This document shows positions 7,255-30,120 of a stretch of DNA of 40,697 nt, piece by piece; within the stretch, counting starts at the first letter, position 1, and each line of letters starts with the position of its first letter. The stretch lies in IMG/VR virus record IMGVR_UViG_2541047891_000003. One strand, written 5' to 3'. The notes under the pieces were generated by a model. The model was not told the origin of the DNA. It searched no databases and saw only the letters and a list, made by a program, of their open reading frames with translations. The DNA is from a virus. Lineage: Duplodnaviria > Heunggongvirae > Uroviricota > Caudoviricetes. The position numbers and the translations under genes were made by a program.

Positions 7255-7530
7255 ATGACAGCATTGGACAAAGCAATAAAGATTGCTGGTGGTATTCGTC
7301 CGCTAGGGCGTGCAATAGGGGCTTGGCCATCTCAAATACACAAATGGGCAAATGAATACAATGGTCGAGTTCCGACGGGGGAACGGGTTCGTCAAATTTA
7401 TATTGCAACTGGGGTTACTCCTCATGAATTGCGACCAGATTTATACCCGAATCCAACTGACGGGTTGCCTGCTGGAGATAAGGCTAACACACCAAATACA
7501 CCGGAGTTGATTCATGAAAATCAAGCATGA
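7255..7530 (+). CDS. Cro/DicC/YdaS-like HTH regulator
   Basis: 91-aa ORF MTALDKAIKIAGGIRPLGRAIGAW...ELRPDLYPNP; divergent from the repressor; resembles YdaS-type Cro analogues. Confidence 0.65.
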   Translation: MTALDKAIKIAGGIRPLGRAIGAWPSQIHKWANEYNGRVPTGERVRQIYIATGVTPHELRPDLYPNPTDGLPAGDKANTPNTPELIHENQA

Positions 7531-7939
7531 ACACATCCGTATGGCGATGAATGCCTGGGCGCATCCGGACGGTGAAAAAGTTCCGGCAGCTGAAATAACC
7601 CGGGCTTATTTTGAGCTGGGTATGACGTTCCCGGAGCTATATGACGACAGCCATCCGGAAGCGCTGGCTCGTAATACCCAGAAAATTTTCCGTTGGCTGG
7701 ATAAAGACACCCCTGATGCGGTTAAAAAAATTCAGGCGTTGTTACCAGCGATCGAAAAAGCAATGCCACCTTTGCTGGTGGCCCGAATGCGCAGCCACAG
7801 TTCAGCCTATTTTCGGGAACTGGTGGAGACGCGGGAACGACTGGTGAGAGACGCTGATGATTTTGTCGCAGTGGCGATCGCTGGTTTCAACCAGATGAAT
7901 CGTGGTGGCCCGGCGGGAAATATTGTGGTTGTGCATTGA
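7514..7939 (+). CDS. YdaT-like protein (CII-like regulator family)
   Basis: 141-aa ORF starting MKIKHEHI as I recall YdaT does; overlaps the end of the cro-like gene. Confidence 0.6.
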   Translation: MKIKHEHIRMAMNAWAHPDGEKVPAAEITRAYFELGMTFPELYDDSHPEALARNTQKIFRWLDKDTPDAVKKIQALLPAIEKAMPPLLVARMRSHSSAYFRELVETRERLVRDADDFVAVAIAGFNQMNRGGPAGNIVVVH

Positions 7940-8010
7940 CTGACAATATTCATACCGGATCGCTTCCGGCAATTCGTGAGTAAAAAGATTCGCTATCAGA
8001 AGAGGTGAGT

Positions 8011-9081
8011 ATGGCTAACGCCTGGCTCAGATTATGGCATGACATGCCAAATGACCCTAAGTGGCGAACAATTGCCAGGGTGTCAGGGCAGCCAATTGCA
8101 ACAGTGATGGCAGTGTATATCCACCTCCTGGTGAGCGCGTCACGAAATGTCACGCGAGGTCACATTGATGTCACGACAGAAGATTTGGCAAGTGCGCTCG
8201 ACGTGACAGAAGAGGTAATTGATTCAATTTTGCAGACGATGCAGGGGCGGGTACTTGATGGTGATTTAATCACTGGATGGGAAAAACGCCAGGTGCTGAA
8301 AGAGGACAACGGCAATATTTCGCAAACCGCAAAATCTCCTGCAGAGCGCAAGAGGGCGCAGCGAGAGAGGGAAAGAAAGCGGGAACAAAATGGAGATTGT
8401 CACGGCGCGTCACGAAATGTCACGCACATGTCACGACGAGTCACGACAGATAAAGATACAGATAAAGATACAGATCAAGAAGATCAAAACACTATGGTCC
8501 ATGGCGTAAAAAACGCCACGAACCAGGCAGGGGATGTTCAGACCGTCAATCCTGGTCAGCCAGCAGGCACGACACCGGAAGCCGATTCAGCGTATGCGCT
8601 GAAAGCCGATTCGGGCGCTGTGCAGCAGGTGATGACCGCAAGGCCGGAGCAATCACACCAACTGCAGCAGCCTGAAGCCGATTCCGCCATTCAGCGGGAA
8701 GCCGATCGGGTAGTCCCGGAAAACACCGGGCAGCCTGTGGGACGAGTGGATTATCCGGATGTGTTCGAACAGGTCTGGCGGGAATACCCGTTGCGTGCCG
8801 GGGCAAACCCGAAGAAATCCGCTTTCAGTGCCTGGAAGGCCAGATTACGCGAGGGGGTGTCACCAGAGGCCATGCTGGATGGCGTGAGGCGTTACGCAAG
8901 ATACCTTGCGGCTACCGGGAAAACGGGAACGGAATTTGTTCAGCGAGCGACGACGTTTTTTGGACCGGACCGGAATTTTGAAAACCCCTGGCTGCTCCCG
9001 GTAAGCGGCACGAACAACCAGCGTTGTGTGAATCATATTTCTGAACCGGATACCGAAATTCCGCTGGGCTTCAGGGGGTAA
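8011..9081 (+). CDS. Replication initiator / replisome organiser (O-like, YdaU-type N-terminal domain)
   Basis: ATG at 8011 with RBS AGAGGTGA upstream; N-terminal replisome-organiser-like region; iteron repeats embedded in the coding sequence. Confidence 0.65.
   Translation: MANAWLRLWHDMPNDPKWRTIARVSGQPIATVMAVYIHLLVSASRNVTRGHIDVTTEDLASALDVTEEVIDSILQTMQGRVLDGDLITGWEKRQVLKEDNGNISQTAKSPAERKRAQRERERKREQNGDCHGASRNVTHMSRRVTTDKDTDKDTDQEDQNTMVHGVKNATNQAGDVQTVNPGQPAGTTPEADSAYALKADSGAVQQVMTARPEQSHQLQQPEADSAIQREADRVVPENTGQPVGRVDYPDVFEQVWREYPLRAGANPKKSAFSAWKARLREGVSPEAMLDGVRRYARYLAATGKTGTEFVQRATTFFGPDRNFENPWLLPVSGTNNQRCVNHISEPDTEIPLGFRG
8137..8480. repeat. Iteron array (GTCACG-containing direct repeats) plus GATAAAGATACA tandem repeat; candidate replication origin inside the initiator gene
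   Basis: 19-mer GCGTCACGAAATGTCACGC at 8137-8155 and 8407-8425; TCACGACAGA at 8171-8180 and 8441-8450; GATAAAGATACA x2 at 8450-8473. Confidence 0.6.
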
Positions 9082-25408: not shown

Positions 25409-25429
25409 GGTCGTTAATGATTTTACCCA

Positions 25430-25450
25430 CCCGCCGCTGGCGGGTTTTTT
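25430..25450 (+). terminator. Hairpin plus T-run upstream of the major tail gene (CCCGCC-gct-GGCGGG then TTTTTT)
   Basis: GC stem followed by a T-run; the track ORF start at 25417 reads through it and is probably not real. Confidence 0.5.
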
Positions 25451-25467
25451 ATTTTCAGGAGACGAGT

Positions 25468-26172
25468 ATGTCCTCTAATTTTGAGCGTTCGCAACTGACG
25501 AAAATTATGATTTCGTCTGCACCGGTAACAGCAGAAACCCTGGATTCTGCCAGCTATCTTGGCCTGAGCTGTACAATCAAAGAGGTGCAGTTTACCGCAG
25601 GACAAAAGCAGGATATTGATGTCACCACGCTGTGTTCTGTTGAGCAGGAAAATATTAACGGTCTTGGTGCCGCGTCAGAGATTTCCATGTCAGGCAACTT
25701 TTACCTCAATGCTGCCCAGAACGCGTTGCGCAGTGCCTATGACAATGACACCACGTATGGCTTTAAAGTTATTTTTCCGTCAGGAAACGGATTTACCTTT
25801 ATGGCAGAGGTGCGTCAGCATACCTGGTCTGCAGGAACCAATGGTGTTGTGGCTGCAACGTTTTCCCTGCGCCTGAAAGGTAAACCTGTGCTGACGACAG
25901 AGCCGCTGAAAGTGAAGGTCGATTTAAACAGCACGCTGCAGGTTTCTGCCGGAGCGAAACTCGAAATGGTGGTTGAGGCTGCCGGTGGTGTGCCGCCTTA
26001 TTCTTATGTCTGGAAGAAAGGTAGTTCTCCTGTTTCCGGACAGACGGCGGCAACGTTCAGTAAGGCATCAGCAGCATCTGGTGATGCCGGTGCGTATACC
26101 TGCGAGATTTCTGATTCAGCAAGCCCGGTTAACAAAGTGACCTCCACTTCCTGCACTGTAACCGTCAGTTAA
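25468..26172 (+). CDS. V: Major tail protein (gpV-like) with C-terminal Ig-like domain
   Basis: ATG at 25468 with RBS CAGGAGACGAG upstream; C-terminal ~90 aa resembles a Big_2 Ig-like domain. Confidence 0.8.
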   Translation: MSSNFERSQLTKIMISSAPVTAETLDSASYLGLSCTIKEVQFTAGQKQDIDVTTLCSVEQENINGLGAASEISMSGNFYLNAAQNALRSAYDNDTTYGFKVIFPSGNGFTFMAEVRQHTWSAGTNGVVAATFSLRLKGKPVLTTEPLKVKVDLNSTLQVSAGAKLEMVVEAAGGVPPYSYVWKKGSSPVSGQTAATFSKASAASGDAGAYTCEISDSASPVNKVTSTSCTVTVS

Positions 26173-26558
26173 TGAGGATGGATGTGATGACTAAAAATAT
26201 CCGTAATCTGGCACTGGCAACGATGTCGGGGTTTCGCCATAAAACCGTTGATGTGCCTGAATGGGAGGGAGCAACGGTTGTATTACGGGAACCTTCTGCA
26301 GAAGCCTGGTTGCGCTGGCAGGAGATCGTTAAAGCCAGGGAAGATGATACATCGCCATCTGTTGCAGAGCGTGCCCGCCGAAATCTGGAGGCGGACGTTG
26401 AACTGTTCATTGATGTTCTGTGTGATACCGGACTGCAACCTGTATTTTCAGAGGATGATCGTGAACAGGTGATTGCCGTGTATGGCCCGGTGCATGCGCG
26501 GCTTCTTCGGCAGTCTCTGGAACTGATCAGTGATGCCGGAGAGGTTAAAAAAAAGTAG
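26172..26558 (+). CDS. G: Tail assembly chaperone G
   Basis: 128-aa ORF ending EVKKK-stop at a slippery A-rich run. Confidence 0.8.
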   Translation: MRMDVMTKNIRNLALATMSGFRHKTVDVPEWEGATVVLREPSAEAWLRWQEIVKAREDDTSPSVAERARRNLEADVELFIDVLCDTGLQPVFSEDDREQVIAVYGPVHARLLRQSLELISDAGEVKKK

Positions 26559-26860
26559 CGCTTCCGGGGATGCGTTTTCTGATGATGCTGGCGCTCAGGA
26601 TGGGGCGCACATTGTCAGAGTTACGCCGGGAAATGTCCGCATCAGAAATCATGATGTGGGCAGAATTTGACAGGTTCAGCCCGCTGGGAGACGAACGGGC
26701 TGATATCCGGGCTGCCCAGATTGTTTCAGCTGTTTACGGTGCGCAGGGGGTCAAAGTGCCACTGAATGATGCGCTTCTTCAGTGGGAGAAGGAGCAGACA
26801 GAAGGCGTATCAGATCCATTTGCCGGACTGGAAAACGCGCTTTTAATAGTGTCTCAGTGA
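26172..26860 (+). CDS. GT: Tail assembly chaperone G-T fusion made by programmed -1 ribosomal frameshift at A AAA AAG (26549-26555)
   Basis: Downstream ORF (to 26860) is in the -1 frame relative to G with no RBS of its own; slippery heptamer at the G 3' end. Confidence 0.7.
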
Positions 26861-26868
26861 GTCAACAT

Positions 26869-26891
26869 AACCGCTTCGGCGGTTTTTTTTT
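26869..26891 (+). terminator. Hairpin plus long T-run between T and the tape measure gene (CCGC-ttcg-GCGG then T9)
   Basis: Short GC stem with a 9-nt T-run; could equally be a regulatory or attenuating structure. Confidence 0.45.
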
Positions 26892-26901
26892 CGTCCGGAG
26901 A

Positions 26902-29900
26902 ATGAGTGTGGCGACATTACGTGAACTGATTATTAAAATCTCGGCAAATTCCCGGTCATTCCAGTCAGAGATCTCCCGGGCTTCGCGTATGGGGCAGGAT
27001 TACTACCGTACCATGCAGAACGGAGGCCGGCAGTCCGCTGCTGCATCCCGTGAAATGCGGCGTGCACTGGCAGAAGTGACGGATCAGATAAATACAGCTA
27101 AATCTTCGGCACTGAATATGGCGGGGGCATTTGCCGGGGCTTTTGCTACCGGTCATCTTATTTCTCTCGCCGATGAGTGGAATTCAGTAAATGCCCGTCT
27201 GAAGCAGGCCTCACAGTCCAGTGATGATTTTCAGGCATCACAGCGTGAATTAATGGCGATCAGCCAGAGAACGGGGACGGCGTTTTCTGATAACGCCAGC
27301 CTTTTTGCCCGTTCTGCAGCTTCCATGCGGGAGTATGGTTACAGTTCTGAGGAGGTACTGAAAGTCACCGAGGCGATCTCCACGGGCCTGAAATTATCCG
27401 GTGCCAGTACAGCAGAAGCCAGTTCGGTGATCACGCAGTTCAGTCAGGCACTGGCGCAGGGAGTGCTGCGCGGTGAAGAGTTTAACTCGGTGAATGAGAA
27501 CGGCGATCGTGTTATTCGTGCGCTGGCTGCGGGAATGGGGGTTGCCCGTAAGGATCTGAAGGCCATGGCGGATAACGGAAAGTTGACCGCCGATAAGGTT
27601 GTTCCTGCACTGATTAGTCAGCTTGGGGCATTACGTGATGAATATGCGGCAATGCCTGATACGGTTTCATCCTCTGCAACCAAAGTTGAAAACGCCTTTA
27701 TGGCCTGGGTTGGTGGTGCGAACGAGGCAAGCGGAGTGACGAAGACGCTCTCCGGTGTGCTGAATGGTATTGCAGGCAATATTGACACTGTGGCAACCGC
27801 TGCCGGTGCTCTGGTTGCCGTCGGGGTAGCCCGATATTTTGGCAATATGGCGTCTTCTGCTGGATCTGCAACTGCCGGATTAATTACTGCAGCCAGAAAC
27901 GAAGTGGCTCTTGCGGAAGCGCAGCTCCGGGGGACACAGATAGCAACAGCCAGGGCGCGTGCGGCGGTTTATCGTGCGCAACAGGCGGTTGTTGCTGCTC
28001 GCGGTACCGAAAGGCAGGCAGCCGCAGAAGCGAAACTGGCTGCTGCCCAGGCATCACTTACCCGTAATATTGCGGCCAGAACAGCAGCACAGACAACGCT
28101 GAATACTGTCACGTCAGTGGGAAGTCGTCTGTTAAGTGGAGCACTGGGACTGGTTGGTGGGGTGCCGGGGCTTGTCATGCTGGGGGCCGCGGCCTGGTAC
28201 ACGATGTATCAGAATCAGGAGCAGGCCAGAGAATCTGCACGCCAGTATGCCGCAACAATCGACGAAATTCGCCAGAAAACGTCGGCAATGTCGCTTCCTG
28301 AAGCGTCAGATAATGAGGAAAAGACGCGGCAGGCACTGGAGGAACAAAATCGCCTGATTAGCGAACAGGAAGGAAAAATTCGCGGACTGAAAAATCAAAT
28401 TGCTGATTATCAACGTTGGCTTGATGAAAGTTCGCAGAGTGGTTCGGGTGCTGAAATCATCCTTAAAGGGCTTGCCGAAGCAACAAATCAACTGGCAGTT
28501 GAACAATCCCGTCTCACTCAAATGCAGGGCAAAGCGCAATCTATTCAGGATGTGCTTGCCGGGCTGGAGGAGCGACGGGTGGCGTTGATCCGTCAACAGG
28601 CGGCGGAACAAAACAAAGCGTATCAGTCCCTGTTGATCATGAATGGGCAGCATACCGAGTTTAATCGCCTTCTTGGGCTTGGTAATGAATTACTTCAGCA
28701 GCGACAGGGGCTGGTGAATGTACCGTTACGGCTACCACAGGCAACCCTGGATGATAAACAGCAGACCGCACTGAATAACAGCAAGCGCGAACTGGCTCTG
28801 TCCCGCCTTAAGGGGGAAGCGCGTGAGCGTGCCCGACTGGGCTATGCTGCGGATGATCTCGGCTTTGTGGGAGAGGCGTATCAGACAGCCAGACAGAATT
28901 ATATCAATAACTCACTGGATGCCTGGCGAAATAACCAGGCAAATAAACCCAAAACGCATAAAAAGACCGAAGCGGAAAAAACAGAAGATATTTATAAACG
29001 GCTGATTAAACAGCAAAAAGAACAGATAGCACTGGCAGGGCAGAATACTGAACTGGCTAAGATGAAATATCAGGTCAGTCAGGGCGAATTATCAACCTTA
29101 TCAGAAGCGCAGAAACAAACCCTTTTACAGAATGCAGCACTCATCGACCAGAAAAAAATTCGTGAGCAAATTGCTGCTTATGAAAGCAGCCTGGCGGACA
29201 GTAACGCCAGTGTCAGGGCATCAAATGAGGCTCAGTTGTTAGGGTATGGAGACGGAACACGAATACGTGAGCGGCTTCAGGAAATGTGGAACATCCGACA
29301 GGAGTTTGAGCAGAAAAATAATGAGTTGCTGAGACAGTACCAGACCGGAGAAATCGAAGAAGCCCTGTGGAAACAGGAAAAAACGCTGAATGAAAAATAT
29401 CTGGAGGAGCGTCTCAACGATCAGCAGGATTATTATGCAAAGGCCGATGCTTTACGCAGTAACTGGAATGCCGGGCTCAAAGAGGGGCTGACGAACTGGG
29501 CAGACAGTGCCACTGATTATGCTTCACAAGCGGCAGATGCGGTCGTTTCCACTATGGATGGTCTGGTTTCAAATATTTCTGAGGCACTGGCCGGAAACGT
29601 TGTGGACTGGAGAAACTGGGGGAGTTCGATCCTTCAGGAAGTTTCAAAAATCCTGATGAACGCGGCAATTGTTAACGGGCTGAAATCACTCTCCGGGACA
29701 ATGTCGGGAGCGGGGGGATGGATTGGTAGTGTTGGCGACTGGCTTTCCGGTGCAGTAGCGAACGCAAAAGGCGGTGTTTACACATCGGCAAATCTGAGTG
29801 CTTACAGTAACACCATTGTGGACACGCCGACGTACTTTGCTTTTGCGAAAGGTGCCGGGCTGATGGGGGAAGCCGGACCTGAAGCTATCATGCCGCTTAC

Positions 29901-30120
29901 GCGGGCAGCGGACGGTTCTCTTGGGGTCAGGGCTATTGGCAATGTGAATGGTGGTGGCGGATTTGTCTATTCTCCCGTGTATCACATCAATATTCAGAAT
30001 AAAGGGAGCAATGGCGAGATTGATACGCAGTCAGCCAGGGGGCTGGTGGATCTGATCGACAGCAGGGTTGTGTCAATTATGCAGTCATCACGTCGGGACG
30101 GAGGATTATGCAGTGCCTGA
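26902..30120 (+). CDS. H: Tail tape measure protein (gpH-like)
   Basis: About 1070-aa Ala/Gln-rich coiled-coil protein; ATG at 26902; the track ORF start at 26782 overlaps the T frame. Confidence 0.85.
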   Translation: MSVATLRELIIKISANSRSFQSEISRASRMGQDYYRTMQNGGRQSAAASREMRRALAEVTDQINTAKSSALNMAGAFAGAFATGHLISLADEWNSVNARLKQASQSSDDFQASQRELMAISQRTGTAFSDNASLFARSAASMREYGYSSEEVLKVTEAISTGLKLSGASTAEASSVITQFSQALAQGVLRGEEFNSVNENGDRVIRALAAGMGVARKDLKAMADNGKLTADKVVPALISQLGALRDEYAAMPDTVSSSATKVENAFMAWVGGANEASGVTKTLSGVLNGIAGNIDTVATAAGALVAVGVARYFGNMASSAGSATAGLITAARNEVALAEAQLRGTQIATARARAAVYRAQQAVVAARGTERQAAAEAKLAAAQASLTRNIAARTAAQTTLNTVTSVGSRLLSGALGLVGGVPGLVMLGAAAWYTMYQNQEQARESARQYAATIDEIRQKTSAMSLPEASDNEEKTRQALEEQNRLISEQEGKIRGLKNQIADYQRWLDESSQSGSGAEIILKGLAEATNQLAVEQSRLTQMQGKAQSIQDVLAGLEERRVALIRQQAAEQNKAYQSLLIMNGQHTEFNRLLGLGNELLQQRQGLVNVPLRLPQATLDDKQQTALNNSKRELALSRLKGEARERARLGYAADDLGFVGEAYQTARQNYINNSLDAWRNNQANKPKTHKKTEAEKTEDIYKRLIKQQKEQIALAGQNTELAKMKYQVSQGELSTLSEAQKQTLLQNAALIDQKKIREQIAAYESSLADSNASVRASNEAQLLGYGDGTRIRERLQEMWNIRQEFEQKNNELLRQYQTGEIEEALWKQEKTLNEKYLEERLNDQQDYYAKADALRSNWNAGLKEGLTNWADSATDYASQAADAVVSTMDGLVSNISEALAGNVVDWRNWGSSILQEVSKILMNAAIVNGLKSLSGTMSGAGGWIGSVGDWLSGAVANAKGGVYTSANLSAYSNTIVDTPTYFAFAKGAGLMGEAGPEAIMPLTRAADGSLGVRAIGNVNGGGGFVYSPVYHINIQNKGSNGEIDTQSARGLVDLIDSRVVSIMQSSRRDGGLCSA

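Follow-up and report, generated by a model that had tools for sequence, protein, structure and literature searches.

Evidence for a programmed -1 ribosomal frameshift at the G/T tail chaperone junction of an HK97-like Escherichia coli prophage

The tail module, G, T and the heptamer between them

The window (the whole stretch of prophage DNA that was analyzed, 40,697 nt) contains tail genes in the order major tail protein, G, T, tape measure, and M- and L-like minor tail genes (Table 1). Judged by their sequences, these are lambda/HK97-type tail genes around G/T, and two ORFs, G and T, lie between the major tail gene and the tape measure gene. Of 5,426 complete E. coli genomes, 902 carry this prophage type, and in the present region phages such as PhiR49_2, Evi, and phi467 share 96 to 98% identity with the window.

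Table 1. Features at and around the G/T junction of the window
Feature	Position	Strand	Remarks
Major tail (tube) protein gene	25468..26172	+	C-terminal Ig-like domain; directly 5' of G; phrog_158, 9.7e-110
Gene G, tail assembly chaperone	26187..26558	+	123 aa, 13.9 kDa; 0-frame product, ends EVKKK-TAG
TAA stop, -1 (T) frame	26546..26548	+	5' bound of the shift window; from -1-frame translation
Slippery heptamer A_AAA_AAG	26549..26555	+	inside an A8 run (26547-26554); read from the sequence
TAG stop of G	26556..26558	+	directly 3' of the heptamer; possible "shifty stop" context
-1-frame segment (linker VALPG, then T domain, Phage_tail_T)	26555..26860	+	ends at TGA 26858-26860
ATG opening the 96-aa ORF	26570..26572	+	12 nt 3' of the G stop; in the -1 frame; weak, mis-spaced SD
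Terminator-like hairpin AACCGC-TTCG-GCGGTT plus T9 run	26869..26892	+	between T and tape measure; terminator scan
Tape measure protein gene	26908..30120	+	PF06120 Phage_HK97_TLTM, 1.2e-82; TMP_3, 7.7e-58; Tape_meas_lam_C, 3.2e-14; phrog_339, E=0

The ORF of the major tail protein opens at 25417, while PGAP starts the gene of the M19 prophage, which is 99% identical, at the position corresponding to 25468; gene starts of M19 were mapped to the window by a fixed offset, which is usable near the tail region only, there being indels elsewhere. The ORF was assigned by its match to the PHROG profile of the major tail protein, phrog_158, and has weak Pfam matches to Phage_TTP_11 and Phage_tail_2 as well as to Ig_2 and Ig_3. 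Its Ig-like domain covers residues ~170-251 of ORF 25417-26172 and also matches Hoc-like PHROGs; PGAP labels the homolog "immunoglobulin domain-containing protein" or "hypothetical protein," not major tail protein. On the other side of the chaperone genes, the tape measure protein (1070 aa) starts at GTG 26908 or ATG 26902, with GGAG 5' of the start. The spacer between T and the tape measure gene is 47 nt long (26861-26907) and carries a terminator-like hairpin. A second terminator-like GC hairpin with a T run, at 25429-25455, separates the tail completion gene from the major tail gene, and putative terminators are annotated at similar sites between genes in the tail operon of HK97. Such hairpins within the tail operon may bring about transcription attenuation that sets protein ratios. 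In HK97, the moron gp15 with its own terminator separates T from the tape measure gene (L133:1532-1720); this moron is absent from the window.

The ORF of G opens at 26172, and the likely start is ATG 26187, which is preceded by GAGGA 7 nt upstream, coincides with the beginning of the Pfam match, and has a predicted anti-SD duplex of -8.5 kcal/mol. G matches PF06222 (Phage_TAC_1) over the entire profile (positions 1-124 of 124; 3.9e-58; 195.2 bits against a cutoff of 25), and the G part also matches PDB 2ob9, "Tail assembly chaperone," with an E value of 1.9e-49; this entry is the structure of the G part of the HK97 pair gp13/gp14. The T part matches PF06223 (Phage_tail_T; 3.5e-19; 69.4 bits against a cutoff of 25.9), and no NCBIfam model matched either G or T. 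When the two parts are conceptually fused, a single stretch spanning residues 1-220 of 224 matches phrog_14766 with 310.9 bits, whereas the parts scored separately reach 153.1 and 139.5 bits, a sum below that of the fusion.

An earlier note on this DNA had proposed that G ends in EVKKK and a stop at the heptamer A AAA AAG, and that a 96-aa ORF follows in the -1 frame. Both features are present: the 3' end of G reads GAG GTT AAA AAA AAG TAG, where the heptamer has the X_XXY_YYZ phase relative to G; in the frame of T, positions 26540-26572 read AGA GGT TAA AAA AAA GTA GCG CTT CCG GGG ATG, and the downstream ORF extends in the -1 frame from ATG 26570 to the TGA at 26858-26860. The frame analysis that the note had suggested as a check places the opening of the -1 frame at the heptamer itself; this frame is bounded on the 5' side by TAA 26546-26548 and is open for 103 codons, from 26549 to the TGA. 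The overlap of G and T, from that TAA to the 0-frame TAG, is exactly the 7-nt heptamer, and since no other position is open in both frames, a -1 shift that joins the two ORFs is possible at the heptamer alone. The predicted GT product, join(26187..26555, 26555..26860), has 224 aa and a mass of 25.2 kDa.

The sequence AAAAAAG occurs 17 times on the two strands of the window; dinucleotide shuffling gives an expectation of ~10 copies, and a count of 17 was reached in 1 of 100 shuffled sequences. It is only at 26549-26555 that a long ORF in the 0 frame (139 codons) precedes the copy, a stop comes 2 codons further on, and the -1 frame stays open for 103 codons; none of the other 16 copies in the window has an ORF geometry suggesting recoding. 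The arrangement at the G/T junction exceeds chance. A frameshift that yields the G and GT chaperones is conserved among long-tailed phages, reportedly from the work of Levin in 1993 and of Xu, Hendrix, and Duda in 2004.

Comparison with known frameshift systems

The HK97 pair gp13/gp14 (NC_002167, HK97p12 and HK97p11) matches the window in both chaperone families, PF06222 and PF06223, and along the full length of the fusion, which is 61.9% identical over residues 1-224 to the product of HK97 7472-8142; the window pair is thus of the HK97 gp13/gp14 type. In RefSeq, gp14 is given beside gp13 as a joined CDS, "translated due to a -1 frameshift." In both phages, the site is flanked by the genes of the major tail protein and the tape measure protein, T is read in the -1 frame, and the slip falls on the same invariant Lys codon, AAG. 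They differ in the immediate context: HK97 has G_GAA_AAG, with the stop of G 15 nt further on and an overlap of 49 nt, whereas in the window A_AAA_AAG abuts the stop and the overlap is 7 nt. The feature in the window is orthologous to the frameshift annotated for gp13/gp14 in HK97, is known in kind, and belongs to a cluster for which experimental measurements on the same slip site exist.

Antonov et al. (2013) describe 41 frameshifted genes that resemble an HK97 protein and form one cluster, "phage tail assembly chaperone" (PMC3711429). Two cassettes of that cluster gave 6% and 7% frameshifting in an E. coli GST-MBP reporter (PMC3711429), and the 7% cassette comes from a Stx/O157 prophage Phage_TAC gene (fs-gene 15618692) with the motif A_AAA_AAG_TAG (PMC3711429, Table S2). 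We found that the 75-nt string of this cassette is the exact G/T junction of prophage Stx2a_WGPS6 (L136:946-1020). The G-T pair of Stx2a_WGPS6 is 63.8% identical to the window fusion and has the same A_AAA_AAG_TAG and the V-A-x-P linker of the window; it differs in having an A6 run (AGA AAA AAG) instead of A8 and ATT at the position of the T ATG, and it belongs to a different prophage lineage.

In lambda, gpG and gpGT are encoded at the same gene position as in the window, and a -1 shift on a heptamer ending in A_AAG fuses the T domain to G. Lambda T belongs to PF06223, the family of the window T, but lambda G matches PF06894 (Phage_TAC_2) only, unlike the window G. In the Pfam profile search, PF06222 was the sole match of the window G and PF06894 was not matched, and a BLASTP comparison of the window proteins with their lambda counterparts returned nothing significant (E=5.6 for G), so that the link to lambda is made via the Pfam profiles and for T only. 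The window G thus shows neither a PF06894 match nor similarity to gpG; by its sequence, it is of the HK97 gp13 type (Phage_TAC_1), not of the lambda gpG type (Phage_TAC_2). The lambda heptamer, G_GGA_AAG, is not adjacent to the stop of G, whereas that of the window abuts it. The roles of the chaperones are known in lambda: tail assembly depends crucially on a G:GT ratio of ~30:1, the tape measure protein is the partner of G and of the G portion of GT, the T portion attaches to the major tail protein, and the virion contains neither G nor GT (PMC5009743). The frequency of the lambda frameshift responds to modification (thiolation) of U34 in tRNA-Lys (PMC3296357).

The heptamer of the window is identical to that of E. 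coli dnaX (gamma/tau), where the same shift-prone tRNA-Lys is used (PMC3711429), although the gene families are unrelated. In dnaX, frameshifting reaches ~50% with the help of an SD-like element 5' of the heptamer and a hairpin at close spacing 3' of it (PMC3711429). Of this type of cassette, the window has the heptamer; it has neither an appropriately placed stem-loop on the 3' side nor an SD-like element ~10 nt on the 5' side. A search by single-sequence folding, z-scores in 25 homologs, and RNAalifold with 22 homologs found no conserved, well-placed stimulatory RNA structure. The main stem of the hairpin predicted in the window starts ~22 nt after the heptamer, and its z-score of -1.9 to -2.5 is marginally better than that of shuffled sequences. 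The sole family-wide helix has 5 bp and lies ~37 nt 3' of the heptamer; its covariation term of +0.16 amounts to no covariation support, and it coincides with conserved Ala-Leu...Gly-Arg codons. An SD-like GGAGAGG (26539-26545) was considered as a dnaX-type stimulator and rejected, as it ends 3 nt before the heptamer, which is too close, and is not conserved. The only recurrent flanking feature of the slip site is the adjacent 0-frame stop.

Conservation of the junction and alternative routes to T

We collected related loci, 126 in all, from both genomes and contigs of viruses, in which G is 42 to 100% identical to that of the window, and tabulated 50 distinct intact junctions. The hosts sampled included Escherichia, Serratia, Pectobacterium, Proteus, Morganella, Pantoea, Yersinia, Orbus, and Zophobihabitans. 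T is in the -1 frame at all 50 junctions, and at 53 of 54 in a separate tally of distinct intact junctions. Likewise, the C-terminal Lys codon of G (K123 in the alignment) is invariant: it is AAG or AAA, is preceded by A, and falls inside the overlap in 50/50. Four motifs account for the slip sites: A_AAA_AAG at 33 distinct junctions (with the stop adjoining the slip codon in 26), the HK97-type G_GAA_AAG at 8 (stop adjoining in none), [A/G]_GCA_AAG at 7 (stop adjoining in all 7), and A_AAA_AAA at 2 (stop adjoining in both). The 0-frame stop thus adjoins the slip codon at 35 of the 50 junctions, including all 7 that have the tetramer A_AAG only, where the preceding codon is GCA (e.g., L020, L021, L032, L033, L035, L037, and L039).

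The linker that follows the slip site, V-x-x-P-G, is also constrained. Its Val is kept in 44 of the 50 junctions, its Pro in 47 (by CCC in 17, CCG in 14, CCT in 9, and CCA in 7), and its Gly in 34, with the codons GGC, GGG, and GGT. Synonymous variation combined with amino acid conservation upstream of every potential start codon fits the expectation for a stretch that is translated within a fusion. In these divergent homologs, then, the frame arrangement and the slip site are conserved, and the linker is constrained as protein.

These comparisons bear directly on the question of whether T could instead be a separate protein, made from ATG 26570 or ATG 26582 by weak initiation or by re-initiation coupled to termination at the TAG, with the heptamer being incidental. 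All inspected database records of the prophage type (RefSeq/PGAP rows and phage records) give G and T as two CDS, with PGAP starting T at an internal Met, ATG 26582, five codons into the T ORF; this Met is conserved in 49/50 junctions, and the other candidate ATG follows the G stop by only 12 nt. However, five -1-frame codons separate the heptamer from ATG 26570, and these are conserved as amino acids with synonymous variation, with Pro kept through four codons and Gly through three, while ATG 26570 itself is ATG in just 17 of the 50 junctions and is replaced in the other 33 by codons for Thr, Val, Ile, or Leu (ACN, GTA, ATT, ATA, CTG). The ribosome-binding potential of the T-frame starts is weak. 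The earlier note had claimed that T has no RBS, and this holds approximately: there is a GGGG run adjoining ATG 26570, the only such element near the T-frame starts, but its predicted anti-SD duplexes (-4.5 kcal/mol at a spacing of 0 for ATG 26570 and -5.7 kcal/mol at a spacing of 12 nt for ATG 26582) fall within the background of -3.15 +/- 2.6 kcal/mol at random positions, against the -8.5 kcal/mol of the G start. Furthermore, the annotation of HK97 has the homologous product as a fusion made by frameshifting, and the homologous Stx cassette frameshifts at 7% (PMC3711429). We consider separate synthesis as the source of T very improbable; ATG 26570 most likely encodes a Met inside GT and does not serve as a start, although some minor independent initiation may take place at ATG 26582.

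The same GT protein could also arise if RNA polymerase, rather than the ribosome, slipped, adding one A on the A8 run (26547-26554). The run has 8 consecutive A residues, and poly-A runs of more than 7 have been linked to programmed realignment during transcription, A9 having been demonstrated in Thermus dnaX (PMC3711429); variants in run length do exist at the site, with A7 at two loci (L057 and L095) and A9 at a third (L048). Across the relatives, however, the run varies from 3 to 9 A, with just 3-4 A in 15 of the 50 junctions and 6 A at a further 2, whereas the in-phase A_AAG is invariant, from which it follows that the conserved mechanism is independent of a long homopolymer. In addition, the homolog that yields 7% has A6 only, and A_AAA_AAG is a classical ribosomal slip site of E. 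coli, used in dnaX (PMC3711429). It is therefore unlikely that transcriptional slippage is the main source of GT, and slippage by the ribosome remains the reading that we favor.

Six loci depart from the common pattern: L057 and L095 (A7), L029 (A6), L048 (A9), L005 (an 11-nt deletion), and L006 (an error-prone contig). L057 and L095 (at ~1860 in each) have A7 where close relatives have A8, and L029 has A6 versus A7. In L048, from "Ca. Symbiopectobacterium endolongispinus," a degraded symbiont genome, the A9 run results in an in-frame G-T fusion. The six departures look like sequencing errors or mutations at the homopolymer, but the length variants could also be real products of replication slippage that change the G:GT output. 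In L005 (1501-2169; JGI metagenome contig Ga0250194_04094), the deletion of 11 nt, TAGCCCGCCCG, immediately 3' of A_AAA_AAG brings G and T into one reading frame, so GT is the only product possible there; by analogy with lambda, this prophage is probably tail defective. Natural single-ORF fusions were also considered as evidence on the junction and were set aside: P0001 and P0003 (L006) come from error-prone contigs with homopolymer indels, and neither P0002 (L005, with the 11-nt deletion) nor L048 (A9, degraded symbiont) offers clean fusion evidence.

Proposed mechanism and significance

The phase of the heptamer, the families of G and T, the continuity of the fusion, the comparative conservation, and the 7% frameshifting of a homologous cassette lead us to regard it as highly probable that G and T of this HK97-like E. 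coli prophage are expressed via a programmed -1 ribosomal frameshift, a reading based on sequence comparison. The earlier note had invoked the conserved G-T frameshift, and gene order, the Pfam families, the single phrog_14766 match, the 62% identity to HK97, and the agreement of 50/50 junctions bear it out.

In the proposed mechanism, most ribosomes would translate the 123-aa G and terminate at TAG 26556-26558, while a minority, probably a few percent, would slip one base back on A_AAA_AAG (26549-26555). tRNA-Lys(UUU) would re-pair from AAG to AAA, possibly together with a P-site tRNA-Lys, and the slipped ribosomes would read GTA (Val, 26555-26557), GCG, CTT, CCG, GGG, and ATG in the -1 frame and continue into T, producing a 224-aa GT that consists of G, the linker VALPG, and the T domain. 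We infer the frameshift efficiency, the protein interactions, and the identity of the slipping tRNAs. An efficiency of a few percent, and not the ~50% of dnaX, would be expected here; neither of the dnaX stimulators is conserved or suitably spaced. By homology with lambda and HK97, G and the G part of GT would coat the tape measure protein, presumably their binding partner in this prophage as well, while the T part would recruit the major tail protein, and a fixed G:GT ratio, set by the efficiency of the frameshift, would be needed for correct tail assembly.

A more specific idea concerns the stop codon next to the slip site. In a shifty stop, the slip takes place with a stop codon, which is decoded slowly, in the A site, as distinct from the textbook tandem slip of two tRNAs. 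It is conceivable, though we hold this only tentatively and think it rather doubtful, that the chaperone family, the window included, uses such a mechanism, in which a single P-site tRNA-Lys slips with the stop in the A site. The idea stems from these observations: A_AAG, at the last Lys codon or close to it, is the sole invariant recoding signal, and the stop adjoins the slip codon in 35 of the 50 junctions, including all 7 where the preceding GCA codon does not allow re-pairing.

The junction described here is one more instance of a textbook recoding event, and the main value of its analysis lies in annotation, the correct product being join(26187..26555, 26555..26860). As a modest by-product, the tabulation of slip motifs (A_AAG invariant, and the stop adjacent where the tetramer alone is slippery) could guide frameshift predictors. 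If the shifty stop idea were true, the availability of release factor and the modification of tRNA-Lys would tune the G:GT ratio, and the A8 run of the window might add a transcriptional-slippage and phase-variable component.
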